Shown here: positions 7,205 through 60,446 of the stretch, piece after piece
Layout: every line of letters begins with the position of its first letter
How positions within the stretch are numbered: the stretch's first letter is position 1
Source: Enterococcus phage VRE9_4
Sequence record: PP680570.1
Strand: one strand, 5' to 3'
Length of the DNA stretch: 64,000 nucleotides
The notes under the pieces: model-generated
The model's database searches: none
Told to the model about the DNA's origin: nothing
Seen by the model: the letters and a program-made list of their open reading frames with translations, nothing else
Translations under genes and position numbers: made by a program

Positions 7205-7264
7205 TTATTTGTCCTCCTTTATAATCTTTCTCTTATGTATATTAAAAAGCTTTTAAACCTAATA

Positions 7265-7300
7265 TAAAAAAAGAACCCTAAAAGATTAAAGGGTTCAAAA
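7265..7300 (-). terminator. terminator hairpin GAACCCT...AGGGTTC
   Basis: 7-bp stem + T-run on minus strand downstream of 7295..7807. Confidence 0.55.
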
Positions 7301-15089: not shown

Positions 15090-15124
15090 AAATGAAAAAC
15101 TCCCTTTCTTTAACTTATATAAAT

Positions 15125-15153
15125 ATTATATCATTTTAAAAATTACTTTTCAA
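15125..15153 (-). promoter_or_regulatory. promoter TTGAAA-N14-TGATATAAT for paralogue C
   Basis: reverse-strand reading; same leader style (ATTTATATAAGTTAAAGAAAGGGAG) as plus-strand cassette. Confidence 0.6.
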
Positions 15154-15390
15154 ATAATGTTTTTAAAATCTAAACTTTATTTGAAGTTTCGTTTCTAAAA
15201 CTTGATTACAAAACTATTATATAATTTTAAAAAAAGTTTTTCAACCAAGAGCAACGAAAGGTTTAGCCTCTAGTCAAAAACATATTTGATTTTTTTTGTT
15301 TAATATATATTTTTATAAATATTTTTTTATTTAAAAAGGAAGTTTTTTGTTCATGTATTACAAATCCGCTCCCCATTATCGCTCTCTTGG

Positions 15391-15419
15391 GTTGACTTTA
15401 TTATATTTAATATATATAA
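15391..15419 (+). promoter_or_regulatory. TTGACT-N17-TATAAT promoter in divergent control region
   Basis: consensus hexamers, 17-nt spacer. Confidence 0.45.
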
Positions 15420-15458
15420 TTAATATAGAGTTTTGAGTAATCTTAAGAGTAAAAATTC

Positions 15459-15487
15459 TTGACTTTTTGATTATTATATGTTATAAT
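15459..15487 (+). promoter_or_regulatory. promoter TTGACT-N14-TGTTATAAT + TAATTATAAAGATAAAT leader
   Basis: same architecture as the conserved cassette. Confidence 0.65.
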
Positions 15488-15537
15488 TAATTATAAAGAT
15501 AAATAAAGAACTAAAATTTGAAGGAGTGTATTTTTAA

Positions 15538-15906
15538 ATGAAAGAAGAAATTATTAAAAAATTTATGAACGCCTTAAACATTTCAAGAGAAGCAGCTTTG
15601 GAGTTATACGACTATGATGAACGAGTAGAAAAAAGTAATAAGCCTGTAGAAGGAGAAATTATAGTTAAAAAGACTCCTAAAACTTCAAAGAAAAAAGGTA
15701 TTCAAAAAGAAGAATTAGATGCAATGAAAGATTTGTTGTCTAAAATGTTCCCTAATGGAGAAGAGTTTAAAAATAATCAATTATCTCCATTATGCGAAGA
15801 ATTAAATTTAACCAACAGACAAACTCCTTCAAGATTAAAAGCATTAAAAGAAGAAGGTTTCTTAGAAGACTTAGGTGGTTCACCTAAAAAATATAAGATT
15901 AAATAA
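15538..15906 (+). CDS. small winged-helix DNA-binding protein, paralogue family member (wH-1)
   Basis: 122 aa; C-terminal NRQTPSRLKALKEEGFLEDLGGSPKKYKIK shared with 31397, 47024, 50569, 52613 genes. Confidence 0.6.
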   Translation: MKEEIIKKFMNALNISREAALELYDYDERVEKSNKPVEGEIIVKKTPKTSKKKGIQKEELDAMKDLLSKMFPNGEEFKNNQLSPLCEELNLTNRQTPSRLKALKEEGFLEDLGGSPKKYKIK

Positions 15907-21315: not shown

Positions 21316-21546
21316 ATGAGAATCAATGCAGATAAAATAAGAGAATATAGAGAAGAACATGGAATTAGCATCGATGAGATGGCTGAAATTCTTAATATAG
21401 ATGGAGAAGCACTTTATGAATACGAAAGTGGAGTTCCATGGTTTGAAGAAGATGCCTTAACTATTTTTACGATTAATAATATTTGTGATAATTTAGATTT
21501 TATTGCTATAGATGTTGATGAATTATTTGAAGAATATAATATTTAA
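21316..21546 (+). CDS. hypothetical acidic protein (76 aa)
   Basis: GGAGAGGAG SD. Confidence 0.5.
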   Translation: MRINADKIREYREEHGISIDEMAEILNIDGEALYEYESGVPWFEEDALTIFTINNICDNLDFIAIDVDELFEEYNI

Positions 21547-30664: not shown

Positions 30665-30684
30665 ATTTATATAAGATAAAGTTA

Positions 30685-30768
30685 CTTGAGTGGTCTTAAA
30701 AAGGAAAGACGCATGGTTTAATCTTCCATGAAACGTTGGTTCGAGTCCAACCTCAAGAATACCAGGAC
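30685..30768 (+). ncRNA. tRNA-like element with canonical T-arm (GTTGG-TTCGAGT-CCAAC) but aberrant anticodon region (5-bp stem CATGG/CCATG with 9-nt loop TTTAATCTT)
   Basis: hand-folded; acceptor CTTGAGT/CCTCAAG with one mismatch. Confidence 0.35.
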
Positions 30769-32156: not shown

Positions 32157-32240
32157 GGAGAGTCCCTGTTGGCTAAAGGAAGAATGTTTTGAAAGCATTT
32201 GGCGGTAACACGTCCAAGGGTTCGATTCCCTTACTCTCCT
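32157..32240 (+). tRNA. tRNA-Ser (TGA), type II
   Basis: AATGT-TTTGAAA-GCATT; variable arm GGCGG...CGTCC; T-arm AAGGG-TTCGATT-CCCTT. Confidence 0.75.
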
Positions 32241-37673: not shown

Positions 37674-37693
37674 AAAAATCTAGTCTTTTTTAT
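37664..37693. terminator. bidirectional terminator AAGACTAG-AAAAAT-CTAGTCTT flanked by A-run/T-run
   Basis: between convergent genes 37464..37673(+) and 37680..38375(-). Confidence 0.7.
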
Positions 37694-38375
37694 TTTGCCA
37701 ATATTCTTTTATACCTACATTAATTTCTTCTTCATCAGGAATGTAGATATCCCCAAAAACTTCTTCAATAGTTGGAAAATTACTTCTAATAATTTCATCT
37801 TTGACTTCAATTACAGCATATACTTTATATTCTCCAAATTTACCTTTTTTCTTTTGACACGCTAATTTAACTAAACCCAATTTATCTAGTAAATCTAAAA
37901 TAGAGTCCATAGCGTCATAAGCTGAACCTGAAGATTTTTTGCCCAATATTTCAGTAATTAAATAACGTTTAGTAAAGAAGAAAATTTTATTCTTATCTTG
38001 ATAGTACCATTGCATTGCTCGAAGAAAAGAATATATTGTGATAACATTATCTGTTTGTATTTGATATAGATATTTAAGTGTTTCTGGATGAATAGTAGTA
38101 AATAAATGTTTTATAGGAAGCTTCATTTTATCATTTTCTTCCAAAATAAAACCATATTCTTTTAACTTATTAATTTGACGATTTATGGTTCGACTTGATA
38201 CACACAATTCGTTCGCAGCCTCTTGACTAGAAAAGTCTTTTTTATTAATATATCTTGGCTCTCCCTTTTTCCCATTCCATTTAGAAATTACTTGTAAATA
38301 CCCATATAATCTATCAATATTTCTTAAACTTGTAAAATCTTGTGTCGTTGGAATTTGATTTTTATGATTGTTCAA
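37680..38375 (-). CDS. HTH DNA-binding protein (231 aa), only antisense gene inside the 30-kb plus-strand block
   Basis: SQEAANELCVSSRTINRQINKLKEYGFIL helix-turn-helix; TTG start behind AAGGAGG. Confidence 0.65.
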   Translation of the reverse strand: MNNHKNQIPTTQDFTSLRNIDRLYGYLQVISKWNGKKGEPRYINKKDFSSQEAANELCVSSRTINRQINKLKEYGFILEENDKMKLPIKHLFTTIHPETLKYLYQIQTDNVITIYSFLRAMQWYYQDKNKIFFFTKRYLITEILGKKSSGSAYDAMDSILDLLDKLGLVKLACQKKKGKFGEYKVYAVIEVKDEIIRSNFPTIEEVFGDIYIPDEEEINVGIKEYWQNKKD

Positions 38376-45607: not shown

Positions 45608-45609
45608 AG

Positions 45610-45636
45610 GTAAGGACCCCTTGTGGGTCTTTTTTT
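45610..45636 (+). terminator. terminator GGACCC-CTTGT-GGGTCT + T7
   Basis: last plus-strand gene of block. Confidence 0.7.
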
Positions 45637-46182
45637 GTATTAGGCAGGATAATTTATCCTCTCTGTTTTATTATAACATTTTATACAGAAAAAATCAAGG
45701 GGTGCTGAGTTTTAGGAAAAAATCCTGGCTTTACGAGGCAAGCCTTTAACGGGGAAAAAATCTAGCGTGGTGGTCGACATTAGGCTGGGTTCCGGCCGTG
45801 CGCGGCCGGCCAAAAAATAACACCCCATTATGAGAGAATTCTAATTTTCACAAATTAAAATAACAGTTTTGGGATTTTGGTTTTTTATTCATGTTATTGA
45901 ATATTAATTCAAGAAGCTGAAAAGCCCGTCATATCAACGTTTTGGGACGGTGTTATTTTATAAATTAAGTTTTTTCTGTTATTTTACGTTTTTTAAATAA
46001 CAAGAGAATTTTAATTTTTCACAAACTATTATTAAAAAATAACAAAAAAATTATTAGAAATCTCTAATTTTACAATTTTAAGAAAAATTTGATTTTCAGA
46101 AAATTTCATGAAAACTTTCAAAAATATTTTCATTTTCATAGATTAAAAAATAGTGAGATTTCTCTCACCATTTTCTCATTTA

Positions 46183-46941
46183 TTAATTTTGAAAACTTGC
46201 TTCAAATTCTTTCATATTAATTTCAGCAATTTTTTCAGAATGAACTTTTGTAGGGATACGCCAGCACATTCTATTTATTTTTCGATTCATTTTTTTGTGT
46301 TGTTTATAGCACCATGCCATTATTGCCACTTCTATATATACATCTGCCAACCCTGTATGTTCCTCTACAAAATCAGTTGTTTTCATCATCCAATTGTAAG
46401 CGACTTCTGCATTAGTTTTTAGGTTACCAGCTTTTGAATAGTAACCATTTTCAAACGCCCACTTTGGAAAACTTTTCTGCGAAAAAATTGTCTGGCAAGC
46501 CATATGCCAAATACAATTTATTTCTAAATTTTTTCCTACTTCATAAGGGAAGAAAAATGGATAGTTTGTCAATTCTTGCCATGTATTATTTAAAGCTTTG
46601 ACAAAATCAAAATAAGCGTTATAGGCTGCCACCGTTTTGATATTGTATTTTTCTATAATGTTAAGAATAACTCTTCTAACATATCTAAACGGCTTCACTT
46701 TCATAATTCCCTGAGAAATTTTTTCACGATACAAAGGCAATTTTGCATAGTAATAAGCGCTACGCATTAAAGCATCATCATCAAAAATTTCTGAAATTGC
46801 GAACGAATGTTCTTCATAGATATTCCCTTTTTTGTCAGCTACAACAAAACCTACATCGTAACATAATGGATTTTTTTCAACATCCCCAGCTGTTTCTACA
46901 TCTAAAACTAAAATATATTTTTTTCTTTTGTCAATTTTCAT
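46183..46941 (-). CDS. DEDDh-family 3'-5' exonuclease (DnaQ/DexA-like), paralogue 1
   Basis: LVLDVETAG (Exo I), YNAYFDF (Exo II), EEHTGLADVYIE (Exo III H-x4-D). Confidence 0.7.
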   Translation of the reverse strand: MKIDKRKKYILVLDVETAGDVEKNPLCYDVGFVVADKKGNIYEEHSFAISEIFDDDALMRSAYYYAKLPLYREKISQGIMKVKPFRYVRRVILNIIEKYNIKTVAAYNAYFDFVKALNNTWQELTNYPFFFPYEVGKNLEINCIWHMACQTIFSQKSFPKWAFENGYYSKAGNLKTNAEVAYNWMMKTTDFVEEHTGLADVYIEVAIMAWCYKQHKKMNRKINRMCWRIPTKVHSEKIAEINMKEFEASFQN

Positions 46942-46980
46942 GCTTACCTTTTTCCACCTTTTTAATAAAATATTTTTTGA

Positions 46981-47012
46981 AAAAATTAAAGGCTAGGTTT
47001 TTACGCCTAGCC
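46981..47012 (-). terminator. terminator GGCTAGG...CCTAGCC
   Basis: 7-bp stem + T-run on minus strand. Confidence 0.55.
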
Positions 47013-47023
47013 CTCGGCGTTTC

Positions 47024-47413
47024 TTAAATAATTTTGTAACCCACTTTTTTCTTGTCGCTTGTTGCGATTCCTTTTTCTAGGATTCCTTCTTCTACTAAAC
47101 CTTTTAGGCGTGGGGTCATTTTTTGTGGAGTGTAGTCAAACTCTAAAGCTTCATTCACTTCTTGACTTGTGTAAAATGTTTCTGGATCAGCTTCTTCAAA
47201 GAACCATTCTTGAATTTTTTGCATGTCTGCGATTTTTTCTTTGTTTGTCTTGCTTTGGCTAGGTTTGCGGTTAGCGTTACGTTTTTGAGCTTGTTCGCCT
47301 TTTTCTACGACAAAATCAATAACTTCTTGCGGTGCTTTTACATTTGACAAGATACGAGCAACTTCTGCAAATTTTTCAGCTACGACTAGTTTTTCAAATT
47401 GTGTTTTTTCCAT
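47024..47413 (-). CDS. small winged-helix protein, paralogue family member (wH-3); first gene of an early operon
   Basis: ATG 47413 behind AAAGGTGG; C-terminal TPQKMTPRLKGLVEEGILEKG...KKKVGYKII; three tandem TTGCAA promoters upstream (47450-47690). Confidence 0.55.
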   Translation of the reverse strand: MEKTQFEKLVVAEKFAEVARILSNVKAPQEVIDFVVEKGEQAQKRNANRKPSQSKTNKEKIADMQKIQEWFFEEADPETFYTSQEVNEALEFDYTPQKMTPRLKGLVEEGILEKGIATSDKKKVGYKII

Positions 47414-47695
47414 GATAAATTCCACCTTTTTAAAATTTTGTTAGTAAGTTGTTCCCTTACTACTCTTTAAGTATAAACGATTTTCAATTATTTTGCAAGT
47501 CTTTTTTTTGCTTTATTAGAAAATTCTCATTTAAGCTTAAAGAGTAACAAGTGAACTTCCCTCTTAAGTATATCATACTTTTTTTAACTTTGCAAGTATA
47601 AAGTTTATTTATTTTTCAAAGAACTTTTTGCAATCTCTTTCCTTATCTCTAATACTATTATAGCAAACTTGAAAAGAGATTGCAAGCATAAAGTC

Positions 47696-48322
47696 TTAAA
47701 TAATTTTGTCAATCGTGATTTTTTTGATTAGTGTTTCAAGTGTTTGTTTGGTTGGTTCGACTAGTAAACGATAATCAGCATGTTTGAATAAACCGAAATC
47801 GCTCGCAGTATCTCCCCACGCCTCTATATAACTATATTCGTTTGTGTTTATGTTCCACTGAATGCAATCATCTTTTTGTGATTCTGAAAACATGCCCTTA
47901 ACCTTTCCAGTGAAACGATCATCTGCTTTCAAATATTCAGTTGCATAGTATGAACAGCCCAAAAAGTCAGCTAAATGTTTAATTAGAAAATCGCTCGAAC
48001 CTGTAACAAGAACAACTTCAAAGCCTTGTAAAATTTTTTCTTTTAAATCGTCCAACGTTTCATACCAATTTTTCCCATTTTCTAAAAATTGAGAAACAAA
48101 CTCTTTTGCATGCATTTCTTTTTCTGTTTTCCCTGTTATCTCGTTGCGATAATTTTCGGCAACGGCAACAATCAGACTTTCATTTTTAACATCTTTTTTC
48201 CATGCTTTAAAAGAGCCATCATCTTTTATGATTCCTTTTTCAATTAAAAAACCCGCATGAGATAAAACAACGCTTTTCCTTGTTAGTGTTCCATCTACAT
48301 CTGTTAGAATTAAATTTTTCAT
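47696..48322 (-). CDS. HAD-superfamily phosphatase
   Basis: motif I LTDVDGTLT, motif IV GDTASD. Confidence 0.75.
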   Translation of the reverse strand: MKNLILTDVDGTLTRKSVVLSHAGFLIEKGIIKDDGSFKAWKKDVKNESLIVAVAENYRNEITGKTEKEMHAKEFVSQFLENGKNWYETLDDLKEKILQGFEVVLVTGSSDFLIKHLADFLGCSYYATEYLKADDRFTGKVKGMFSESQKDDCIQWNINTNEYSYIEAWGDTASDFGLFKHADYRLLVEPTKQTLETLIKKITIDKII

Positions 48323-49139
48323 TTCTTTCGTCCTCCCTTTATCTTATATACTTATTATAGGGGATAAACGATAAAAAGTAAAGCATTTTACACATTAAAA
48401 TTATTAAAGTTTAATGAGAATTGTTTCTAATTTACACACAATTCACCAGGCGTTATTTTATAATTAAATAACAGCTTTTCTTCGGACACATGTTATTTTA
48501 TAAACCTGTAAGCGCTTACAAACTGCGTCAGATCAAGCTTTCAATAGATTTTCAGAAATTTTCATTGTTGTTTCAATAACAGGCAAAAAAATACATGTGA
48601 AATAATTCACAAACATAAAATAACACCCAAGAGCAGAAAAAATAACACACTTTGGCTCGTGCGCACATTCACATTCTCTTGCTCTCTTGGAATGAAAAGG
48701 CTGTGAAAGCTTGGTATAATAGGCTTCCTGGGTTGCGAAAAAATTCACATGCATGGACTTTTGGGATATTAAAATAACATTAAAAAACAATTAAATAACG
48801 AGCCAAAAACTTGACAGGGATAAAATAACACAGTAAAATGGCGCTCGCCAGCGAGCGGCCGAAAAATAACGTCCTCTATTTGTTATTTTATTCATTTCAC
48901 AAACTTTAGTTTCAGGATTCTGTTATTTTATTTTTGAAAATCATTTTTCAATTTATGAAAATGAAAATGAAAGCTTGATACATCAAGGTTTTGGGAGCCT
49001 CGCCCCACAATGTTATTTTATCTTCTTCCTTTGGGGCTGTTATTTTATTTTATACATTTCATAAACTTTACTTTTAAAATAACACGTATTTCTTTGTGAA
49101 AAAATTCACAAGCAAAATTAAAAAAAGATGAGAAGAATC

Positions 49140-49397
49140 TCATCTTTCAAAAATACGCCCTAAATTATAATCAATGTTATAATTAAAATCTGAATAGTCA
49201 TTAACAACATCAACAAAGTTGAAAAACTCAACTACTATTTTTTCGGCTTCTTCTGGCTCTAAACAACCACTCATAATTTCATCATTCAAAATTAATAAAT
49301 CTTCAATTTTTCGATATAACACTGAAAACTCATCTTTATCATATACCTCAACTAAAAAAATTTTTCCTGTAGGCATTTTTACAATTACGTTTCCCAT
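49140..49397 (-). CDS. hypothetical early protein (85 aa)
   Basis: own promoter TTGACT-N14-TGTTATACT (49429-49457) and SD. Confidence 0.45.
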   Translation of the reverse strand: MGNVIVKMPTGKIFLVEVYDKDEFSVLYRKIEDLLILNDEIMSGCLEPEEAEKIVVEFFNFVDVVNDYSDFNYNIDYNLGRIFER

Positions 49398-49428
49398 TTA
49401 ATTCATTCCTTTCCTTTACTATATATAT

Positions 49429-49457
49429 AGTATAACATATAAGTAAAAGGGAGTCAA
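49429..49457 (-). promoter_or_regulatory. early promoter TTGACT-N14-TGTTATACT with -35 inside a terminator-like hairpin
   Basis: reverse-strand reading. Confidence 0.6.
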
Positions 49458-49466
49458 CCCTTTTAC

Positions 49467-49724
49467 TTAATTTTCTTGATTAAATTTTTCTAATCGTTTT
49501 AACAAAATTTTTCCATTTATTTTAGCTATTAATTTGCCAATTAAACTTTTTGACATAGATAAATTTTTAAATCTGAAATAATAGAAATCACTTCTATTTT
49601 CTCCTTTTCTAAATTCATAAGCCAGCTTACCATTTAAAATTTGATTGTGGAGAAAAATCTTTACTTCTGGGAAACTCTCAATAATATAATAGTTACCATT
49701 GTTTACAAAAACATTCATTTGCAT
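49467..49724 (-). CDS. hypothetical early protein (85 aa)
   Basis: own promoter TTGACA-N14-TGATATAAT. Confidence 0.45.
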   Translation of the reverse strand: MQMNVFVNNGNYYIIESFPEVKIFLHNQILNGKLAYEFRKGENRSDFYYFRFKNLSMSKSLIGKLIAKINGKILLKRLEKFNQEN

Positions 49725-49781
49725 TTAATTCATTCCTTTCTTAACTTTCTATAATTATTATATCAAGGAAAGGGCTGTTTG

Positions 49782-50084
49782 TCAACCCTTTTCCTCAATT
49801 TCTTTGATAATTCTTTTTTCGTCCTCTGGTAACATTTGAATAACAGTCTTTACTACTATAGTTTTATCTGTTTCATTACAGACATATAAGCGAGAACCGA
49901 AAACCCACAATTTAAATTCATTCTCTTCATTTTTTGGCGTTTTCTTCCTTACGTTCTTAATTTGAAAATCGTTAAGAATTGCCGAACGAACTTGTCTATT
50001 ATTCATTTGTTCTTTAGCTACTCTTTCTAAGTAGCGCTCTTTGGCGTGTTGTGTGATAATAACTTTTTTAGTAAATAAAAGCAT
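49782..50084 (-). CDS. hypothetical early protein (100 aa)
   Basis: own promoter + SD. Confidence 0.45.
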   Translation of the reverse strand: MLLFTKKVIITQHAKERYLERVAKEQMNNRQVRSAILNDFQIKNVRKKTPKNEENEFKLWVFGSRLYVCNETDKTIVVKTVIQMLPEDEKRIIKEIEEKG

Positions 50085-50142
50085 TTGTTACAACTCCTTT
50101 CTATATTCTTATTATATATTATAAGGGTTGAAAAGTCAACCC

Positions 50143-50514
50143 TCAACCCTCAAAAAACTTTTTAGTAATTTTTTCCTTTACATTAATTTTTTCAATTTTT
50201 TCTTTTGCAGAAAAATCTGTCACGTCAATACTGTGGATTCTGTGCTTGTCATTGTCACTAATAAAATTATTCGACCCGAAAAAATTATATACTTCTGTTA
50301 ATTCATCAGCTTCATTATCCTCAAAAAATTCGACTAGTTTATAATCATATTCATTTTGAATTTTCCGTTTTCTTTTTGCAACTAAAGAACCTTTATAATA
50401 TAATTTAACAGTCATATTATTAGTTAATAAGTTAAATTTCCCAGTGTAAACACAAAGTTCGTCCACTCCAATTAGTTTTACTTTCTTTTCTTCAAATGTT
50501 TTAAAAATTTGCAT
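50143..50514 (-). CDS. hypothetical early protein (123 aa)
   Basis: ATG 50514 (AAGGAG SD overlaps track GTG). Confidence 0.5.
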   Translation of the reverse strand: MQIFKTFEEKKVKLIGVDELCVYTGKFNLLTNNMTVKLYYKGSLVAKRKRKIQNEYDYKLVEFFEDNEADELTEVYNFFGSNNFISDNDKHRIHSIDVTDFSAKEKIEKINVKEKITKKFFEG

Positions 50515-50543
50515 TTCGTTCACTCCTTATTCTTTATATTATT

Positions 50544-50572
50544 ATTATAACAGGTGGTAAAGGGTTTGTCAA
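50544..50572 (-). promoter_or_regulatory. early promoter TTGACA-N14-TGTTATAAT; -35 in loop of GGTAAAGGG/CCCTTTACC hairpin
   Basis: reverse-strand reading. Confidence 0.6.
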
Positions 50573-50976
50573 CCCTTTACCTTATATTTTTTAGGACTTC
50601 CGCCTAAGTCTTCCAGATATCCCTTTTCTTTCATTTTTTTCAATCTGCTAGGGGTCTGACGGTTTGTGTATTTATCAGCAACTAACAAATGAAAATCTTT
50701 ATTTTGAAAATACTCTTTGCCACCGAAAGCAATTTTCACTACATTGTTAAATAAGTCGTCAATTTCATCTTCTGTAATTTTTGCCTTTGCATTTTTAGCT
50801 TTCTTGATTTCTTTTTGTTCTTTTTCAAAGTCTGTTTTCTTGTCACTTTCAAACTTATCAAACTCTCTTAACTCGATAGCTTCGGCAAGATTCAACTCTA
50901 ATTTTTCAACCATTTCATCAATTAATTTCCAATCATGAGAAGTAATCTTTTCGCCGTTAGAAAATGTTTCTTGCAT
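50569..50976 (-). CDS. small winged-helix protein, paralogue family member (wH-4)
   Basis: ATG 50976; C-terminal NRQTPSRLKKMKEKGYLEDLGGSPKKYKVKG. Confidence 0.5.
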   Translation of the reverse strand: MQETFSNGEKITSHDWKLIDEMVEKLELNLAEAIELREFDKFESDKKTDFEKEQKEIKKAKNAKAKITEDEIDDLFNNVVKIAFGGKEYFQNKDFHLLVADKYTNRQTPSRLKKMKEKGYLEDLGGSPKKYKVKG

Positions 50977-51037
50977 ATAACACCATTCCTTTCCTTTACT
51001 ATATATATAGTATAACATGAAAACTTTTTTGTGTCAA

Positions 51038-51283
51038 CTATTTTTCACTTTTTTCCCAAAGATAATTATCGCATGCCACAAAAAGACTTTCTAAAAATTT
51101 TAAGGCTTCAAAAAAAGGTTTTTGCATATAGTTTTTATAAATAGGATTTTCGTCAAAAGGCGTTGCCCAATTAGAAACATAATAGACCAATCCTTCCCAA
51201 TCAGCTTTACCATAAAAATCGCTAATTTGTTCATCTGTAGAATTTTCTAAAATGGTATTAATATCTTTTTTCATTTTATCCAT
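51038..51283 (-). CDS. hypothetical early protein (81 aa)
   Basis: GGAGGGG SD. Confidence 0.45.
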   Translation of the reverse strand: MDKMKKDINTILENSTDEQISDFYGKADWEGLVYYVSNWATPFDENPIYKNYMQKPFFEALKFLESLFVACDNYLWEKSEK

Positions 51284-51509
51284 TTTCGTCCCCTCCTTAA
51301 CTTTCTATAATAATTATAACAGATAAAACTAAAAAAATCAAATAATAAATACATGAGTTTTAGGATATTTTTTCTCATTAAACTTTTAGAAAAAATTTTG
51401 ATTTTTTTCTTGATATAGACCTAATTTTGTGGTAAAATTTCCGCCCGAAAACGGCAAATTTGCTCACTATTTCACAAGAAAGCTAAATAAAAAAAGGCTT
51501 TTCAGCCTT

Positions 51510-51749
51510 TTAAAAATGATTGCCAAGTATAGAATACAAACCTCCCCAGCCAATAAAGAAAATATACAAAATACCAAGAAAACCGCTCAAAGTGAAAAAT
51601 TTACCAGATATAATAATAAAAATAAAATATATAATAGGTATAAAAAACATAGTACCAAACAAAACCGATGATACAATCCCCCAAAAAAATAAGCTTGCTC
51701 TTTCTTTGGACTTTCTTTTCTTTCTATTTCTGATTTCAATTCTATTCAT
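51510..51749 (-). CDS. small membrane protein with basic N-terminus
   Basis: RNRKKRKSKER then 2-3 TM; own TTGACA promoter at ~51790. Confidence 0.4.
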   Translation of the reverse strand: MNRIEIRNRKKRKSKERASLFFWGIVSSVLFGTMFFIPIIYFIFIIISGKFFTLSGFLGILYIFFIGWGGLYSILGNHF

Positions 51750-51799
51750 TCTTATCATTCCTTTCTATAGTTATATTATAGCAAATAAAAAGAGTTGTG

Positions 51800-52519
51800 T
51801 CAACTCTTTTTATTATTTAAATTTTCTTCGTTTACAATTCGCCACGCTTGAGGATTAATAGAATAAGCATGAATAGGAATTTCTTTTTCTTGACTTAATA
51901 GACAATGTAAAATTTTTGTTTCATCTATGCTATCCTGTAAAGCAGTATGCTCTTCAATGTAACCTGTATCATTAAACAAAAATTTGTAAGTTGCTTCTGC
52001 ACCAGTTTGATAATTTCCTTTTTCTGTCAAAAGGTTGTGAGTTTTTGCGAACTCTTTATATTCTGGCGTATTTAATACAGTATAAGCGGCAACTGGATAA
52101 ATATCAATCAAAAAGAAATTATCAAAGAAATCAAAATCCTTCCCTGAAAAAAAGAAATGAGTTTTTGCAATTACACGAGTGTCAAAACCTAAGTTATAAG
52201 CACCAATGTAAGCAACATTATATTTTTTACAGTCTTTTTTAAGTTGTCCGATAATGTTCGCCCACTTGCTAACAATGATTCTTTTTTCAAGTAATTTTGT
52301 AAAATATATTTTTCCATCAACTACATTTTCATCAATCAAGAAAGCACGTTTTTTATTCAACGCTTGAAATTTGAATTGTTCTACCATGTAAGAACGTTCT
52401 ACTAAAATATTTCCCTTTTTGTCTGAAATAGCCCAACCAATATCGAAAACTGATTGATAAGGCATTCCCTCGCCTTCTTTTGTTGTTTCAGTATCTAAAA
52501 TCAAAAATGTTTCTTGCAT
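51800..52519 (-). CDS. DEDDh-family 3'-5' exonuclease, paralogue 2
   Basis: LILDTETT, YNLGFDTR, EEHTALQDSIDE; ATG 52519 behind AAAGGTGG. Confidence 0.7.
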   Translation of the reverse strand: MQETFLILDTETTKEGEGMPYQSVFDIGWAISDKKGNILVERSYMVEQFKFQALNKKRAFLIDENVVDGKIYFTKLLEKRIIVSKWANIIGQLKKDCKKYNVAYIGAYNLGFDTRVIAKTHFFFSGKDFDFFDNFFLIDIYPVAAYTVLNTPEYKEFAKTHNLLTEKGNYQTGAEATYKFLFNDTGYIEEHTALQDSIDETKILHCLLSQEKEIPIHAYSINPQAWRIVNEENLNNKKS

Positions 52520-52612
52520 GTAATTTTCCACCTTTTCAATAAATTTATTTGTTCCTTAACTACTATTTAAGTATAACAAAAGGGCTTGAGCTTGTCAAGC
52601 CCTTTTACTAAC

Positions 52613-53026
52613 TTATTTCAATTTGTAAGCTACTTTTTTATCCTTTACAACTTTTTCAAATTCTTCATTATCAACTAATGGTTTCATGATTGCCGTCAAT
52701 TTTTGAGGTGTAGCACCAACAAGCCCAATTAATTCAGAAATTTCGTGCAATGTTAAGGCTGTTTCTGGTTCTAAGTCAAGAAATGCTTTTCGTACTTTAT
52801 CCATATTTTCGGCTTTTTCTTTTGCTGTTTTGCTTACGCCTTTTTTACCACGTTTTGCCTTGTCTTGTTTCACTTGTTGAGTGTGCATAGCTTTCAATTT
52901 GTCTAATAATTCAATATCAACTTTTTCAAATAAGTCAGTATTTAAAAATGTTTTGTCCTCGATTGCTTTGCTTACTACTTTAACCGCTAATTCCAATGCT
53001 TGTGCTTTTGTAATTTGTTTTTCCAT
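52613..53026 (-). CDS. small winged-helix protein, paralogue family member (wH-5); first gene of early operon
   Basis: ATG 53026 behind AAAGGTGG (identical RBS/start context to 47413); two tandem TTGACA promoters upstream. Confidence 0.55.
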   Translation of the reverse strand: MEKQITKAQALELAVKVVSKAIEDKTFLNTDLFEKVDIELLDKLKAMHTQQVKQDKAKRGKKGVSKTAKEKAENMDKVRKAFLDLEPETALTLHEISELIGLVGATPQKLTAIMKPLVDNEEFEKVVKDKKVAYKLK

Positions 53027-53188
53027 GATAAATTCCACCTTTTTAAAATATTTTTTTGTAACAATTTCTTATTACATTCTTAGTATAAAACATTTTGATT
53101 TGTTTGTCAAGTGTTTTATACTAATTTCTAACAAGAAATTTTTGTTGTTTTCTTTATACTCTTATTATAGAGTATTGAGAAAGGCTTG

Positions 53189-53392
53189 TCAAGCCTTTTC
53201 CCAATTTTCTTTTAAGAAAGTAACAACGCTATAACTTGTAATAGTTGTTAAGGCAATAAGTAACAAGCTTTGAATAGAGAAGAAACCAGTGTACAAAATA
53301 GCTTGATAAGTAAAGTAGAATGGTACTAAGATACCTCCAGCGACTAAAATTCCTACAAAAACAATTAATAATACTAATTCAGATAATTTCAT
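53189..53392 (-). CDS. small membrane protein (67 aa)
   Basis: 2 TM. Confidence 0.4.
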   Translation of the reverse strand: MKLSELVLLIVFVGILVAGGILVPFYFTYQAILYTGFFSIQSLLLIALTTITSYSVVTFLKENWEKA

Positions 53393-54076
53393 TTTAAAAC
53401 TTCCTTTCCTTTTCTATATATTAAGTATATCATTGTTAAAATGTTTTGTCAATACTTTTTGTTAAATAATTTCAAATTTTCTATTTTTAAATTCTTCTTT
53501 GAAGTCTTGAACGGCTTGTTCATAAGTATCACCTTCAACAAAAATTTCTTCAATTTTAGGATAACCACTATCCAAACTAATTTCATCTAAGAATTTAACA
53601 AGTAAAATATATTTATTCATTTTTTTCATTCCTTTCCTTATCTTGATTCTATTATAACACGACTTAATTCATCTGTCAACACTTTTATCATTTTATCAGC
53701 TTTTTCTTTTCGGTCAATTTCTTTTTCTCTTTGGTTCTTTCTAGCAATCAATTTCAATCTTAAATATTTATTTTTCATTTTAAATCGTTCCTTTCTATAA
53801 TTCTATATTAGCAAACCTCAATGCTTTTGTCAAGCATTTTATTAAATTTATTTTTTTATTTTATTTTTTGTTCCCTCCTTAACTTTCTATAATTATTATA
53901 GCATAGACCAAGAGGAAAGACAATAATAAAACACTGTAATTTTAATTAGAATTTTCTCATTTTGTATGAAAGATGTAAGCGCTTTCATTTTATGGTTTCC
54001 TCCCTGTTTGCGGGGCGTTCTCACCTCTCCTTATATTTATATTATAGCAGAAAAAAATAAGCCCGTCAAGGCTTAT

Positions 54077-54478
54077 TTATAAGTTTTTCCATTTTTTTCT
54101 TTGTTCTCGATAGGTTTTTGCTGTTTGCTCTTCAGTATCATGATGAGCAACCATGTTTGCGCCGATGTTAGTTCCTTGAATTGTTTTTGTTTGTTTGATT
54201 TGTGCTAATTCATCTAAGTTTTTTTGCGAGTATTTTTCAACAGTTTTATATAAACTAGCCTCATTTAAAATTTTAATAACTTTTTTTCGTTTTAAGAAGA
54301 AAGTTTTGTATTCTTCTTCCTCTAATCTGATAAGCTGAATTATTAAATTATCATCAAACCAATCCAACCTTACCTTTAAAACATTATACCCAAAGCATTT
54401 TTCAGGACTTACCTCGATCAATTTTACATCGTCTTCTTTTTTATAATGATATTTTTTGATATATTCTAAATCATTCAT
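54077..54478 (-). CDS. hypothetical early protein (133 aa)
   Basis: AAGGAG SD, ATG 54478. Confidence 0.5.
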   Translation of the reverse strand: MNDLEYIKKYHYKKEDDVKLIEVSPEKCFGYNVLKVRLDWFDDNLIIQLIRLEEEEYKTFFLKRKKVIKILNEASLYKTVEKYSQKNLDELAQIKQTKTIQGTNIGANMVAHHDTEEQTAKTYREQRKKWKNL

Positions 54479-54651
54479 TCTTGTCACTCCTTATTCTTTA
54501 TATATTTATTATAGCATGAGTTTTGGGACAAGTCAACAGAAAAACGCCAAAATAAATAAAAAAAATTTTCTATGAAAGCGCTTTCATTTTATGGTTTCCT
54601 CCCCCCTTACAAGTTCAGTATAACAAAAAAATAGGGGTTTGTCAACCCCTA

Positions 54652-55065
54652 TTACTTAAATTCATTATATAAATTTTCTAATTCAATTTCTTTCTTTTTC
54701 TGTTTCTCTCTATCTTCCACACAATAAAACATATCTCTTACAAAAGGTAAGTCAATCAATCTGAGATTTCCTTTTTTATATTCTGATAACATTAATAAAT
54801 TTTCTTTTTCTGTATCTTCTTCCCACTTATCTGTATAATGATATTTTTCAGAATAAAGGATTTCTACTTTCTTCTTTTTTGAAAATATTTTTTTCTTTTC
54901 TCTAAAATTCATTAGTGAGATTTTAAATAATCCTGTTCTCCATTGAGAAATAAAGACATTTTCAATTATAAGAAATTTATATCCCTCTATCTCTTCATGT
55001 AATTCTACTATCGCAGTTTTTTCATCTAATTTCTTGATATATTCTTTTTGTTCTACTGTAAGCAT
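54652..55065 (-). CDS. hypothetical early protein (137 aa)
   Basis: AAGGAG SD, ATG 55065. Confidence 0.5.
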   Translation of the reverse strand: MLTVEQKEYIKKLDEKTAIVELHEEIEGYKFLIIENVFISQWRTGLFKISLMNFREKKKIFSKKKKVEILYSEKYHYTDKWEEDTEKENLLMLSEYKKGNLRLIDLPFVRDMFYCVEDREKQKKKEIELENLYNEFK

Positions 55066-55126
55066 TTCATTCACTCCTTATTCTTTATATTATTATCATA
55101 ACAGAAAGGGATAATCCTGTCAAGGA

Positions 55127-55453
55127 TTATCTTCTTAAAATTTTTCCAACAAACACATCTTGTCTTATTTGTTCAGCTTGTTCAAGATATATTAATTCAA
55201 ATGAATCTTTATAGATACGATGATTTTTTATATCTAAAGTCTTTTTTGTTGAGAAAAAAGCATCTAAAGCATCTTTTGAAGCCTCTGTTATATCTTCATC
55301 ATAGAAATCTCCTTTCAATTGTTCTTTTATATATTCTGCAAAATCTTTATAAAGCGTTGTAATTAAAAGATGATGATTGCGTAAACGTTTTTCAGTTCTT
55401 TCAACCTCTTTCTTCATTTCATTAATTTTTTCTTTCATTTCTTTTTCTAGCAT
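55127..55453 (-). CDS. hypothetical early protein (108 aa)
   Basis: AAGGAG SD. Confidence 0.5.
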   Translation of the reverse strand: MLEKEMKEKINEMKKEVERTEKRLRNHHLLITTLYKDFAEYIKEQLKGDFYDEDITEASKDALDAFFSTKKTLDIKNHRIYKDSFELIYLEQAEQIRQDVFVGKILRR

Positions 55454-55621
55454 ATTTAGTCACTCCTTATTCTTTATAATATAATTATATCATAGTTATA
55501 GGATAAGTCAATAGAAAAGCGCCAAAAAGTTTAAAAATTTTTTTCAGTGAAAGCGCTTACATTTCTTTCCTCTCTTGGTACAATATTATTATAGCACAAA
55601 AAAAGGACTTTTGCAAGTCCT

Positions 55622-56107
55622 TTATACTAATTCTTTTCCGATTACACTTCTTTTTAATACGTCAATTTTTTCTTTCATTTCTTCACTATCTAAAAATTTA
55701 TTCAAGTTTTCTTTATTAAAATTCTTAGATAATTCAAGAGCCAAAATTTCGCTATCTGTCAATGGATAGTTATGATTGTTTATTCTTCCGCCAACTACTG
55801 AAAAGCATACCTGTTCGTTAGTATCGAAATCTATTAAATATATATCTAAAATTGAAACTTGAAGCCATGAAATAGCAGAATCAGCGTTTCTTACAATTTT
55901 TTTAGAAACTTCTTGATTTGCTCGAAACATTATTACATCAGTAACTCGATTATTTATTGTTGTTACTGTTGTTTTTTTATCCATTAATTTTGGGTCATGA
56001 TTGTATATTCTTCTTCTATACCATGCCTCACTAATACTATAACCAATCATAAACAACATAAGACCTATTAAGACAGCTAAACAAATACTACCAATAACTA
56101 TTCTCAT
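55622..56107 (-). CDS. N-terminally membrane-anchored early protein (161 aa)
   Basis: MRIVIGSICLAVLIGLMLFMIGYSI. Confidence 0.5.
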   Translation of the reverse strand: MRIVIGSICLAVLIGLMLFMIGYSISEAWYRRRIYNHDPKLMDKKTTVTTINNRVTDVIMFRANQEVSKKIVRNADSAISWLQVSILDIYLIDFDTNEQVCFSVVGGRINNHNYPLTDSEILALELSKNFNKENLNKFLDSEEMKEKIDVLKRSVIGKELV

Positions 56108-56178
56108 TTTAAAATCATTCCTTTCTTTTAACTATAATTAGTATAACATGGTTAGAGGTTGATGTCAACCCCTAACAT

Positions 56179-56538
56179 CTATCTTTTTCTTTCCCAGTAG
56201 TATTTTTCAAGAAAATCACAAAAATCTGTTTTTTCATCAATTTTCCATACTATTTTAATTTCATTCGTATTATTGAGCAAACAAATTCTTTCAGTTATAA
56301 AGCCGAGAAAGTCATGAAATTTATTTGTGTCACTTGCTCGCTGTTTATTTCTAAAGAACTTTTTGGGAAGTTCTACATAACTACATCTTTCAGGTAACCA
56401 GCTAGTATAAGCTTTTAAATATAAACTTTTTTTGTTTTCATTCCAAAACATTTCTTCATTATATTGTGACTTTGTTATTACTTGTATAGGATATTTCTCA
56501 TTAGTTTTTAAATTAACTATTTCAATAATCTCTATCAT
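56179..56538 (-). CDS. hypothetical early protein (119 aa)
   Basis: AAAGGAATG SD. Confidence 0.5.
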   Translation of the reverse strand: MIEIIEIVNLKTNEKYPIQVITKSQYNEEMFWNENKKSLYLKAYTSWLPERCSYVELPKKFFRNKQRASDTNKFHDFLGFITERICLLNNTNEIKIVWKIDEKTDFCDFLEKYYWERKR

Positions 56539-56589
56539 ATATTATCATTCCTTTCTATATATCTAATATACCATAGTTTCGGGGTGGTG

Positions 56590-56826
56590 TCAATAAATAT
56601 TTTCATTTAACCATTTAATAAAATCATTATACACTTGATGAATGTCAAATCTATTTTGGAATTGCATATTAAAATCATATTTATTTCGTAACCATTCACT
56701 AAGTGCATAGCTATCAACTAAAGGGCTAGTAAGCTCTTTCTTATATTTAGATAGGTACTTTCGTTCTAGTTCATATTCTAAAGCAAATTCTAAAATCTCG
56801 ATAGCTTCAAGAGTTTCATTATTCAT
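56590..56826 (-). CDS. hypothetical early protein (78 aa), first gene left of the control region
   Basis: TTGACA-N17-TATACT promoter at ~56880-56910. Confidence 0.45.
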   Translation of the reverse strand: MNNETLEAIEILEFALEYELERKYLSKYKKELTSPLVDSYALSEWLRNKYDFNMQFQNRFDIHQVYNDFIKWLNENIY

Positions 56827-57003
56827 TTTGAATACCTCTTTTCAATAGGTTTTAGGGCTATTCATCTAACCCCTATAAATAGTATAATATATAAAACCCT
56901 AATTGTCAAATGATTTTTAACATTAGACAAAATATTTTTATATACATTATGTATGTATATATGCATTCGATAACAGATGTTATTTTAATAGACTATCGAG
57001 AGA

Positions 57004-57017
57004 TGTAAGCGCTTACA
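57004..57017. promoter_or_regulatory. perfect cre-consensus palindrome TGTAAGCGCTTACA
   Basis: matches TGWAANCGNTNWCA at 14/14; identical copies at 48507-48520 and 57491-57504. Confidence 0.5.
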
Positions 57018-57234
57018 AAAGATTTACTTAAACAGATGAATTGAAAGCGCTTTATTTTACGTTTTAAGAGCTTTTCATATTATTTGGCATAATTATCTAT
57101 TAAGCATTATAAAACCCAAGAGAAGAGCAAAGAAGTGTATTGTGGGCGCTATTATTAACTTTTATTAAGGTGTTAGAATAAATAGTCTTATATAAAATAA
57201 CACTTATCAGTTATTATAACAAGTGTTATGTTTG

Positions 57235-57457
57235 GTGGCAGAGATGTGATGAGCTAATACATTGTGAAACATTTCACACATGTACAATCATTCATATAAT
57301 AATTTATTCATATGTATGAATGAACAGATGTACATATATTCATATGTGGCAGAGATGTGATGAGCTAATACATTGTGAAACATTTCACACATGTACAATC
57401 ATTCATATAATAATTTATTCATATGTATGAATGAACAGATGTACATATATTCATATG
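57235..57457. repeat. perfect tandem direct repeat, 2 x 111 bp
   Basis: unit GTGGCAGAGATGTGATGAGC...TACATATATTCATAT repeated head-to-tail (57235-57345, 57346-57456); each unit contains TGTGAAACATTTCACA. Confidence 0.9.
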
Positions 57458-57614
57458 TACTCACTGCCAGTCTGTGAGCATTGTCACAGATGTAAGCGCT
57501 TACAACTCATTGACGCAAGGTGTCAAGCAAAGATACTTGGCGCACATATGTTCGGCTAGCTCCCAGCAACTTGATGAATAACAAAGGTTATTTAATTTTA
57601 TAGTTCGGCATTTA

Positions 57615-57632
57615 AAATAACAAGTGTTATTT
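57615..57632. promoter_or_regulatory. 18-bp perfect palindrome AAATAACA-AG-TGTTATTT (operator-like)
   Basis: second identical copy 57787-57804; half-copy 57216-57229. Confidence 0.55.
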
Positions 57633-58257
57633 AAACATACTTAAATACTTGAACAGATGTACATATGAACATATATTCATATATTGTGGCAGTAGGTACA
57701 GATGGACTAGACCAATCGTAACCCTAAACGATTGTGAAATATTTCACAAGGATTCCACTCAACGTTAGAAATTAGTTGATATTATTAAATAACAAGTGTT
57801 ATTTATGGTGGCAGCAACATAGACGAGTGTTATTTAATTAATAAGGGAGTTAGTGGTAAGGGATGCAGAGGTCGTTATTTAATTAGGTCAATAAGTTTTT
57901 ACAATAGTAATAAAAGGCTTGTTATCATTAGGGTTTGGGCGTTTTCAGGAATGGAATTGAGATTGGAATTGGATTTACGATTGTTATTTCTGCCCATGGG
58001 GGTTGGGTTAATGCGGGTCTTACAGGCTGTTATTTTTTCTAAAATAGCTTTTAGTGGGGATGGTTTTGGGATTTGTGAAAATATTCACAAGTCAATCAGG
58101 GAAGCCGCGGCAATAACACTTAATCAGAGCTTCAAAATTGAAAATCGCATGACTGTCTTTTTTCTACAACGTCTCACGGTTGGGGTAGATTTATCTATAG
58201 TTCTGCCCAGTTTTTATATTGATACCAGAGTAAATGTAAATAAAGGAGGAGTTCGAC

Positions 58258-58458
58258 ATGGCAAAACACGTCATAGAAGAAGAGCTTCTACATGGTTCGG
58301 GCTTTAACGTCGTAACTAATGGAGAAGTAGAAATTACAGCTGATAACGCCGAGCGGATTTTAAAATTTATTACCGATGGCACAATTGATATTGACGTTAT
58401 TAATCATAATATTAAATTTAGCTCTCGAGTTCCAGTATTCACAACATTAGATTGGTAA
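58258..58458 (+). CDS. hypothetical protein (66 aa) preceding tail fibre
   Basis: AAAGGAGGAG SD. Confidence 0.45.
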   Translation: MAKHVIEEELLHGSGFNVVTNGEVEITADNAERILKFITDGTIDIDVINHNIKFSSRVPVFTTLDW

Positions 58459-60337: not shown

Positions 60338-60344
60338 GATTAAA

Positions 60345-60374
60345 AAGAGAACTTGAAAAAGTTCTCTTTTTTTA
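60345..60374 (+). terminator. terminator AGAGAACTT-GAAAAA-GTTCTCT + T7
   Basis: after tail fibre. Confidence 0.7.
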
Positions 60375-60403
60375 CTTGACATTATTTAGTCTATATGCTA
60401 TAA
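60375..60403 (+). promoter_or_regulatory. promoter TTGACA-N14-TGCTATAAT
   Basis: rigid architecture. Confidence 0.55.
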
Positions 60404-60446
60404 TATAAATATAGAAAGACATAAAATATTGGAGGAATAATTATAG

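Follow-up and report, generated by a model that had tools for sequence, protein, structure and literature searches.

The 64,000-nucleotide stretch of Enterococcus phage VRE9_4 analyzed here (PP680570.1; the whole stretch is referred to as the window) contains at positions 56827-58257 a control region, region C, that separates leftward early genes from rightward genes. We favor, with modest confidence, the view that this region is a divergent early/late transcriptional switch, predicted from its sequence to use operators of the host metabolic type, those of CcpA and Rex, together with a phage-specific operator. The original prediction had offered a replication origin or a master switch at which several regulators converge, and the latter is the best reading: the region is noncoding and under purifying selection, it lies where early and late genes diverge, its palindromes are its most conserved positions, and the same palindrome classes are present in diverged relatives. 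A second result concerns the perfect 2x111-bp tandem repeat within the region, the first copy of which is, judging from related records, very probably an assembly artefact and not phage DNA. Host regulators acting on phage switches (CcpA, PMC12607152) and dispersed phage-specific operators in SPbeta (PMC10516654) are already known; what would be new here is a lytic-type enterococcal phage in which consensus-strength cre and Rex operators are combined with an operator of the phage's own at the early/late divergence.

Region C and its flanks are 95-96% identical to six GenBank records, and the window comes from a phage of the EF1/EF5/H1/VRE9 group (~140 kb) of Enterococcus faecalis and E. faecium. 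The EF1/H1/VRE9 phages are unclassified beyond Caudoviricetes and have been assigned a position close to a clade of gut phages that is related to the SPbeta-like ones (PMC10607447); the literature that we found on the group deals with taxonomy only. No integrase is annotated in the VRE9_1 record, and the phage is apparently lytic. The limits of the region and the one open reading frame (ORF) that intrudes on it are as follows; here and below, features listed without a strand are unstranded.

56827-58257: control region C on the ORF map; the first leftward early gene ends at 56826 and the rightward 66-amino-acid (aa) gene starts at 58258.
57951-58307, plus strand: 118-aa ORF; hypothetical protein in the H1 and EF1 annotations.

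The anatomy of region C, its motif statistics, its conservation and its fit to published consensus sequences are observed directly. As had been claimed, it is the largest ORF-free gap in the window, measuring 1124 nt up to the doubtful 118-aa ORF and 1431 nt up to the first credible rightward gene, which is the 66-aa gene; after removal of the duplicate repeat unit its true length is probably 1320 nt. In an alignment of eight close genomes over 54.0-62.8 kb, with the duplicate unit left out of the region count, 11.8% of the sites in the region are variable, compared with 26-29% of third codon positions in the sigma-factor, PhoH and 620-aa genes, and the region evolves 2-5 times slower than synonymous sites. 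Motif positions are 5.7% variable versus 13.5% in the rest of the region (Fisher p = 2e-4), with changes at 0/28 positions of the cre class, 1/70 of the P1 class and 2/54 of the Rex class. The region is thus noncoding and under purifying selection. A gene spanning it in relatives, which would have refuted the original prediction, was looked for; the candidate was the 118-aa ORF. This ORF is probably not a gene: its variability by codon position is 0.078/0.05/0.05, compared with 0.035/0.009/0.26 in the sigma-factor gene, its frame is not kept open in the diverged metagenomic loci L014 or L015 despite conserved surrounding nucleotides, and it has no Pfam or PHROG match. Since the H1/EF1 ORF is not conserved as a reading frame, the noncoding claim stands.

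The first class of palindrome, TGTAAGCGCTTACA, had been placed on either side of the repeat, and both copies are there (57004 and 57491). The complete set of such sites in the window extends beyond the region.

57004-57017: cre box 1, TGTAAGCGCTTACA; with its flanks a perfect match to WTGNNARCGNWWWCAW.
57491-57504: cre box 2, TGTAAGCGCTTACA; a perfect 16-mer match, ~80 nt downstream of a rightward promoter-like site.
57043-57056: degenerate cre-like site TGAAAGCGCTTTAT, with the common AAGCGCTT core.
48507: cre box in island B, a noncoding island with the same motif set as region C.
53974-53987: cre box in the leader of an early gene; a sigma-A promoter located within a terminator loop precedes it by ~50 nt.
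54573-54586: cre box in the leader of an early gene, flanked by the tandem promoters P1 (54645-54617) and P2 (54536-54508).
55548-55561: cre box in an early-gene leader, between tandem promoters (55616-55588, 55511-55484).

Six sites with ≤2 mismatches are present in the window, where 0.15 are expected; expected motif counts were obtained from dinucleotide-preserving shuffles. The published cre consensus of CcpA is the 16-mer WTGNNARCGNWWWCAW (PMC9784791). TGWAANCGNTNWCA is matched by all six window sites, and the 16-mer by four of them, among these both sites of the region. The two W positions (T/A) are non-complementary in two of the six sites, and this variation favors recognition of DNA by a protein over an RNA hairpin. 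In three early leaders the cre boxes lie 20-60 nt downstream of strong consensus promoters and upstream of a second promoter; those in the region lie 80-190 nt downstream of weaker promoter-like sites. A cre box downstream of a promoter would suit a roadblock, which in the early leaders would act on one of two tandem promoters. The sites resemble the CcpA operators of Firmicutes in being 14-16-bp pseudo-palindromes that fit the published consensus at every specified position and that occur in several copies downstream of predicted promoters. CcpA is known to bind a cre site in the cI promoter of the S. aureus prophage PhiSa3XN (PMC12607152). The difference is that here the sites are predicted, and that an apparently lytic 140-kb phage carries six near-ideal copies limited to its early block.

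The original prediction had also suggested CcpA and a regulator of the CRP/FNR type as the host factors involved. This was a good guess: the first palindrome fits cre perfectly, and the second, TGTGA-N6-TCACA, fits the Rex operator better than that of CRP.

57373-57390 (duplicate 57262-57279): Rex-type box TTGTGAAACATTTCACAC; departs from the Rex core at one position and has a C within W4.
57384-57411 (duplicate 57273-57300), plus strand: promoter-like site TTCACA-16-TATAAT, the -35 of which is overlapped by the Rex-type box TTGTGAAACATTTCACAC.
57732-57749: Rex-type box TTGTGAAATATTTCACAA; perfect TTGTGAAW4TTCACAA.
58073-58090: Rex-type box TTGTGAAAATATTCACAA; perfect, inside the conserved right-hand block of the region.
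57473-57488: weaker palindrome TGTGAGCATTGTCACA; CRP-like core only, 3/16 positions vary among relatives.
48595, 48733 and 49094: Rex-type boxes in island B, with one mismatch, with two mismatches and perfect, respectively.

The four copies of TGTGA-N6-TCACA that had been reported (57263, 57374, 57733 and 58074) were recovered, together with one at 57473 that had been missed; the window holds seven, with 0.06 expected. The Rex operator is TTGTGAAW4TTCACAA in S. aureus (PMC2883068) and TTGTKAWAAWWTTCACAA in S. pneumoniae (PMC6018154). Three window sites match it perfectly (57732, 58073 and 49094; the first two are in the region) and four more do so with ≤2 mismatches. The likeness is one of sequence, TTGTGAA-W4-TTCACAA in three perfect copies, and of position, one box overlapping a putative -35 element as repressor sites do. 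This overlap occurs only at 57262/57373. We considered whether Rex boxes act as -35 elements in general and rejected the idea, because only 57262/57373 has a -10 at the right spacing. The boxes differ from known Rex operators in that they reside in a phage and not upstream of fermentation or respiration genes, and in that one conserved copy changes its spacer in relatives. In the literature searched we found no report of Rex operators in phages.

The third class, AAATAACAAGTGTTATTT, was likewise found where it had been reported (57615 and 57787). Its core, ATAACA-N2-TGTTAT, which we call P1, occurs in the window in four exact copies, compared with 0.02 expected, all of them within the region; with a fifth, imperfect copy, all P1 sites of the window are in region C.

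56970-56983: P1 copy 1 (ATAACA-N2-TGTTAT), 20 nt left of cre box 1.
57216-57229: P1 copy 2; the minus strand reads TGTTATAAT, the extended -10 of a possible leftward promoter (57213-57241).
57578-57591: P1 copy 3, ATAACAAAGGTTAT; one mismatch.
57617-57630: P1 copy 4, within AAATAACAAGTGTTATTT.
57789-57802: P1 copy 5, within AAATAACAAGTGTTATTT; GGTGGCAG comes next, as it does at copy 2.

The P1 18-mer was sought in one genome of each bacterial species and was not found in Enterococcus. Its hits are scattered singles, except in a related 139-kb phage contig (L103) and in an unrelated chromosomal array of Eubacteriales (L118). We recognize no host counterpart of P1, and scattered single hits with none in Enterococcus speak against a host operator. 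The L118 array (positions 1370-1815; Eubacteriales metagenome-assembled genome (MAG) JAZKYZ010000010.1) consists of six TTAAATAACAC(T/G)TGTTATTTAA palindromes repeated in tandem on the chromosome with a period of 84-85 bp. It lies between housekeeping genes for a peptidase and a pseudouridine synthase, and beyond the P1 core it has no evident link to the phage sites and gives no clue to their binder.

Related to P1 is the half-site TGTTATTT(TA), an asymmetric motif of ~11 nt that forms arrays in both orientations. Its distribution is confined: 26 of the 30 exact window copies fall into three noncoding islands, A (45.8-46.05 kb), B (48.45-49.08 kb) and C.

48323-49139: island B, noncoding, within the early block; one cre box, three Rex-type boxes and 14 GTTATTT half-sites (11 with the full TGTTATTT core).
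45608-46182: island A, noncoding, at the convergent far end of the early block; six TGTTATTT half-sites.

An 85-aa ORF (48533-48790) that overlaps island B is probably spurious. The palindromes outside the region, at 48.5-49.1 kb and 54-55.6 kb, had been missed earlier. Across the VRE9_1 genome, perfect cre boxes, good Rex boxes and TGTTATTT clusters are restricted to 120-132 kb, which corresponds to the early block with its borders. A role for TGTTATTT as a promoter for a phage sigma factor or for late genes was rejected, as the motif is virtually absent outside the three islands and has no conserved element downstream. This pattern, a short motif in several intergenic regions with a P1 18-mer not seen in Enterococcus, recalls the SPBRE operators that are dispersed in Bacillus phage SPbeta and bound by the master repressor MrpR (PMC10516654, PMC10607447). 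In both cases a short phage-specific motif recurs in several early intergenic regions of a large phage, the two phages being distantly related, and here too it is a predicted operator for one phage regulator. The motif sequence is a different one, however, and it takes the form of palindromes and dense two-orientation half-site arrays instead of one site per promoter. In addition, the annotation of VRE9_1 lists no MrpR-like protein, and a temperate lifestyle is not known for the phage.

The operators are set among promoters. Nearly every gene of the leftward block has a consensus sigma-A promoter of its own (window 49400-56910), which is a hallmark of an early module read by host polymerase, and the TTGACA -35 is often placed within the loop of the terminator hairpin of the gene before, so that terminator and promoter form a compact cassette (e.g., 54653-54630, 54078-54055, 55131-55110, 55623-55602 and 49469-49440). 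The promoter of the first early gene lies in region C itself.

56881-56909, minus strand: P_L, promoter of the sigma-A type (TTGACA-17-TATACT) for the first early gene; hexamers invariant in eight genomes, also present in L014 and visible in L015.

With the duplicate unit removed, two promoter-like sites stand back to back ~55 nt apart, the leftward one with the extended -10 TGTTATAAT within P1 copy 2 and the rightward one being TTCACA-16-TATAAT. One cre box lies downstream of each (57004 and 57491), and the strong P_L is located further left. The binders, the sign of regulation and even the choice of the promoter-like sites that fire are inferred. Host CcpA, responding to sugar, and Rex, responding to NADH/NAD+, or phage proteins of the same specificity, would set the outflow of transcription in both directions; a phage-encoded protein at the ATAACA/TGTTAT sites would act jointly with CcpA and Rex, and the early-to-late programme would be coupled to host physiology. 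Should CcpA and Rex indeed bind, the sugar supply and redox state of the host would determine when a lytic phage of vancomycin-resistant enterococci expresses its early and late genes. This would bear on the behavior of the phage in the gut and in therapy, and it would offer a link to the unexplained ccpA mutations that are selected by other enterococcal phages (PMC8924694). It is also conceivable, though quite unlikely in our estimate, that the cre and Rex boxes act as decoys, either instead of regulating phage genes or in addition to it: around a dozen consensus-strength operators on hundreds of genome copies would soak up CcpA and Rex and thereby de-repress host carbon and fermentation genes, to the advantage of the phage. 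The dense Rex-type arrays of other low-GC phage contigs (9-15 per 2-3 kb) would then be stronger versions of the same device.

Two further observations concern the early block. Paralogous intergenic modules are found at window 54500-54660 and 55480-55625, with the order terminator/promoter 1, ribosome-binding site (RBS)-like GGAGG, cre box, T-rich stretch (TTTTGGCG(C)TTTTCT), promoter 2, RBS and gene; the cre box forms a 5-codon mini-ORF (ATGAAAGCGCTTTCATAG) in one module and begins with ATG-TAA in another. A 136-aa early protein (window 54077-54487, L014 4949-5359) is 81% identical between window and L014 while its neighbors are unrelated, and a cre box follows the gene in both lineages, so that gene and cre look like a conserved early module in a mosaic block.

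The diverged relatives bear directly on the proposed switch. We fetched 46 metagenomic loci through alignment of the sigma factor. At the same position, two of these, L014 and L015 (~69% sigma identity), contain an ORF-free counterpart of 1.2-1.25 kb; L014 is 95% identical to L103, the 139-kb contig, which is binned with a Carnobacterium MAG. Although the backbone of L014 and L015 aligns with the window only in short blocks, all motif classes are present there. L014 has seven P1 copies, three perfect cre boxes (TGTAAGCGCTTACA) and one Rex-type box, and L015 has six P1 copies, three near-cre boxes and one Rex-type box; both have in addition the conserved box with a 3-nt spacer. Relatives at ~40% sigma identity carry arrays of other motifs, e.g., TTTTGTGCAA, in comparable noncoding stretches. 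One such set, AAATTGCACAAAA / TTTTGTGCAATTT, occurs in both orientations in several early noncoding stretches of L029 (7840-8080) and also of L033, L043, L051, L020 and L023, and further lineages use GTTAACAA, TTGTTAAA or GACTTTTATA. These observations suggest that the architecture is family-wide and that the motif vocabulary is lineage-specific.

Several findings weigh against a switch read by host CcpA and Rex. Each of the three cre-like boxes of L015 has one mismatch, in the left arm, and the relatives at ~40% sigma identity have neither cre nor Rex boxes. The 4-nt Rex spacer is not kept at 58073, where the L014 and L015 block has TTGTGAAAATTTCACAA, with a 3-nt spacer; a strict dimer operator should not tolerate such a change, although this comparison covers the 58073 site alone, the other Rex-type sites being not alignable. 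The overlap of the Rex-type box with a -35 is not conserved in L014 or L015, nor is the rightward promoter-like site, and promoter-like matches in the region as a whole do not exceed those in shuffles (13 vs 9.6 +/- 2.7). Finally, perfect Rex-type boxes occur in many large low-GC viral contigs, in some of them as dense arrays in noncoding DNA. In L170 (IMGVR_UViG_3300045988_163471), a stretch of 2.7 kb contains 15 boxes with ≤1 mismatch; L222 (IMGVR_UViG_3300021399_000103) has nine perfect ones, L194 has eight and L205 seven, and L174 also carries an array. Some of the arrays have a 29-33-bp periodicity, and they show no fixed relation to -10 elements. Host Rex regulons differ in having no dense arrays of this kind. 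A phage-encoded binder would explain the arrays no less well than host Rex, and they may be a wider phenomenon, either a phage operator family or titration of Rex.

The identity of the binders is accordingly where the most serious rival arises. All three palindrome classes may be bound by phage-encoded regulators, the likeness to cre and Rex operators being mimicry or coincidence and the switch not reading host metabolism; we regard this as possible but doubtful. The phage does encode helix-turn-helix (HTH) proteins, candidates being a 76-aa XRE-type HTH protein (21316-21546) and a 231-aa winged-helix protein (37680-38375). Arrays as dense as those of L170 and L222 are more typical of a dedicated phage operator, and the lineage-specific arrays of the ~40% relatives, in equivalent places, and the 3-nt spacer variant in L014 and L015 point the same way. 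On the other hand, two independent motifs fit two host consensuses at every specified position (6/6 cre sites, three perfect Rex 18-mers), and they are unchanged in a lineage that is binned with a different host genus, Carnobacterium, as expected of conserved host factors. Moreover, the VRE9_1 record has no annotated protein of the LacI or Rex type. The first early genes adjoining the region were considered as candidate regulators and dropped, as they are not conserved between the window and L014.

The replication origin proposed as the alternative to a master switch finds no support. By this account the region is or contains an origin, in which palindromes and half-sites would be iterons and the AT-rich palindromic segments an unwinding element. 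The region is a large noncoding one, dense in repeats and palindromes, it coincides with a local minimum of cumulative GC skew in the window, and the TGTTATTT half-site arrays are iteron-like in number. However, the skew tracks gene orientation, with a second, similar switch at 15 kb. No DnaA box (≤1 mismatch) is found in the region, and its AT content of ~68% equals the genome average, with no AT-rich unwinding element. The half-sites occur in both orientations, without regular spacing and in three separate islands, and cre boxes are also present in ordinary early-gene leaders. The polymerase, helicase and recombination genes are >45 kb away, and the genes that adjoin the region encode small unknown proteins or are tail or sigma genes. 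On these grounds we consider an origin improbable. Lactococcal phages of the c2 and sk1 types have noncoding origin/control regions between early and late genes, and region C is like these in being a large repeat-rich noncoding region between divergent early and late units; it differs in that no origin feature was found in it.

The right-hand part of the region calls for separate treatment.

57930-58257, plus strand: right-hand block, G-rich, 328 nt, the best-conserved stretch of region C (5.8% of sites variable); alignment with L014 and L015 possible in part.
58258-58458, plus strand: 66-aa gene with a strong RBS; 59% identity in L014, close counterpart in L015.

The block would probably be the promoter or leader of the unit formed by the 66-aa and tail-fibre genes. 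A structured RNA (a leader, riboregulator or small RNA gene), with the 58073 palindrome as an RNA hairpin, is an unlikely alternative that would account for a block that is so conserved and alignable across three lineages; a hairpin would also tolerate the change of loop length in L014 and L015, and a few compensatory pairs are seen. Yet the folding energy is no better than that of shuffles (z = -0.30), covariation is weak and its term unfavorable (RNAalifold, with only three independent lineages), and 56.8-58.3 kb has no Rfam match, either at the gathering threshold or at E ≤ 1.

The perfect 2x111-bp repeat was regarded as the centerpiece of the region in the original prediction. It exists in the deposited sequence (57235-57458, period 111, 2.0 copies, 100% identity by Tandem Repeats Finder), but as a piece of biology it does not hold, an assembly artefact being the best explanation.

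57235-57345: 111-bp unit, first copy; probable artefactual duplicate of 57346-57456 (untrimmed k=111 contig-end overlap).
57346-57456: 111-bp unit, second copy; single copy in all relatives in the alignment.

Each unit comprises a GTGGCAG box, a Rex-type box with its promoter-like site, and AT-rich palindromes (ATTCATA-TG-TATGAAT). All ten close relatives (six GenBank records and four near-identical metagenomic contigs) lack the duplication and have one unit each; in the six GenBank records the stretch that matches the region is shorter than the query by exactly 111 nt. Two sister genomes have perfect 111-bp duplications of their own at other loci. That of VRE9_1 (PP680567.1), in 2.0 copies at 123272-123494 (L057:23272-23494), is in a different noncoding island and is missing from VRE9_2, though the stretch is otherwise 100% identical. 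That of VRE9_2 (PP680568.1), at 115809-116030 (L149:40809-41030), falls within CDS0160, which is 723 nt in VRE9_2 and 612 nt in VRE9_1, the duplication adding 37 codons; it is absent from the sister genome. Three independent assemblies thus show, at three loci, duplications of one and the same odd length, always in exactly two copies that are 100% identical, with a junction microhomology of just 1-2 nt. The relatives have neither the repeat nor a polymorphism of copy number at its locus, one or the other of which a biological tandem duplication would lead one to expect. It is the absence from relatives together with the same-length duplications elsewhere in VRE9_1 and VRE9_2 that leads us to read the repeat at 57235-57456 as an artefact.

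A source for such an artefact can be proposed. A k of 111 is a commonly used assembler setting. The k-mer overlap of a circular-looking contig, left untrimmed, would become an internal tandem duplication once the contig was rotated, and rotation is suggested by the first gene of the VRE9 records, which is one of the terminase region. Assemblers are known to break circular templates at an arbitrary point and to leave a k-mer-length repeat on both contig ends (described by the CheckV authors for DTR contigs, PMC8116208). Like those contig-end repeats, the present ones are perfect, of odd length, in exactly two copies, without junction homology and in a different arbitrary place in each independently assembled genome; they differ in being internal and tandem, which needs a rotation that is plausible for the VRE9 records and unverified for the window. 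The duplications in PP680567.1 and PP680568.1 are probably untrimmed assembly overlaps in deposited records as well. At least two public genomes of the group contain perfect internal tandem duplications of assembler k-mer length, and these are easily mistaken for regulatory repeats.

The assembly break points also enter into another explanation, in which the noncoding islands are landmarks of virion DNA, such as long-terminal-repeat boundaries around the early block, a packaging site or a T5-like injection stop. Islands A and C bracket the 11-kb early block with its strong host-type promoters, and phages of the SPO1, T5 and K types have terminal repeats with a comparable early-block layout. 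The terminase is ~5-6 kb to the right of region C, and two of the three assembly break points fall in islands B and C. The remaining one is inside a coding gene, though, and public records start at arbitrary points. A landmark would also leave unexplained why conserved dimer-type palindromes fit transcription-factor consensuses, and we hold it to be very unlikely.

We read the genome layout from the complete VRE9_1 record (140,269 bp). A long rightward structural/lysis module is followed by a leftward replication/nucleotide-metabolism module and a rightward tRNA-bearing module; then come the 11-kb leftward block of small genes (window 46183-56826), region C and the 66-aa and 620-aa genes, and finally a terminator, the sigma-factor gene with its own promoter, PhoH and the terminase. 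The flanks of the region had been described as leftward early genes and rightward tail-fibre genes. The left flank is as described; the right flank is more varied, since it comprises the 66-aa gene, the 620-aa tail-fibre-like gene (PHROG tail hits, weak Peptidase_S74), a terminator, the sigma-factor gene, PhoH and the terminase. The 339-aa sigma-factor-like protein has distant matches in SPbeta-like phages, and upstream of its gene are a clean terminator and a TTGACA-17-TATAAT promoter that is perfect and extended (window 60340-60446). Because the sigma-factor gene has a terminator and consensus promoter of its own, the rightward unit of 66-aa and tail-fibre genes is short, and the sigma-factor gene is probably early, read by host polymerase and separate from the tail-fibre unit upstream.

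Elsewhere in the window, a second divergent noncoding region at 15089-15538 is AT-rich (24% GC) and lies between the replication/nucleotide-metabolism and NrdD modules; it is the other GC-skew minimum and is without cre, Rex and P1 motifs. The tRNA calls differ between programs, a weak Rfam tRNA at 30684-30759 not being reported by ARAGORN and the ARAGORN tRNA-Ser(tga) at 32157-32240 not being listed by Rfam.

The shorter motifs reported for region C proved less uniform than the palindromes. Two of four boxes given as GGTGGCAG have that sequence and the other two read TGTGGCAG, so that GTGGCAG is the common core; a sigma-54 reading of these boxes was rejected, as no -12 element was seen by eye. 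CATATG is not enriched across the window (15 copies, 15 expected), but the local clustering is real, as six of the 15 are in the region (four without the duplicate). LexA is an example of a host regulator that acts on phage switches. One LexA(Cheo)-like box is present in region C.

57541-57554: LexA(Cheo)-like box CGCACATATGTTCG; one mismatch, within a block conserved in L014 and L015.

L014 has five such boxes (GAAC-N4-GTTC core) at 6806-7427, which corresponds to L103 5950-6575, and the window keeps the one at 57541; the window also contains the degenerate LexA-like segments GAACAGATGTAC and GAACATATATTC.

Finally, a search for a promoter motif shared upstream of late genes yielded only a vague CCAAGAG leader motif, and an analysis of k-mer sharing was uninformative. 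The element (C)CCAAGAG(A) is found 15-30 nt upstream of the RBS in many VRE9_1 leaders (1430, 32706, 45128, 82985, 130001, 131548 and others). CCAAGAG also occurs in region C (window 57121) and in the equivalent regions of L014 and L015; possible readings are a processing site, the 5' end of a transcript or no more than a purine-rich leader.

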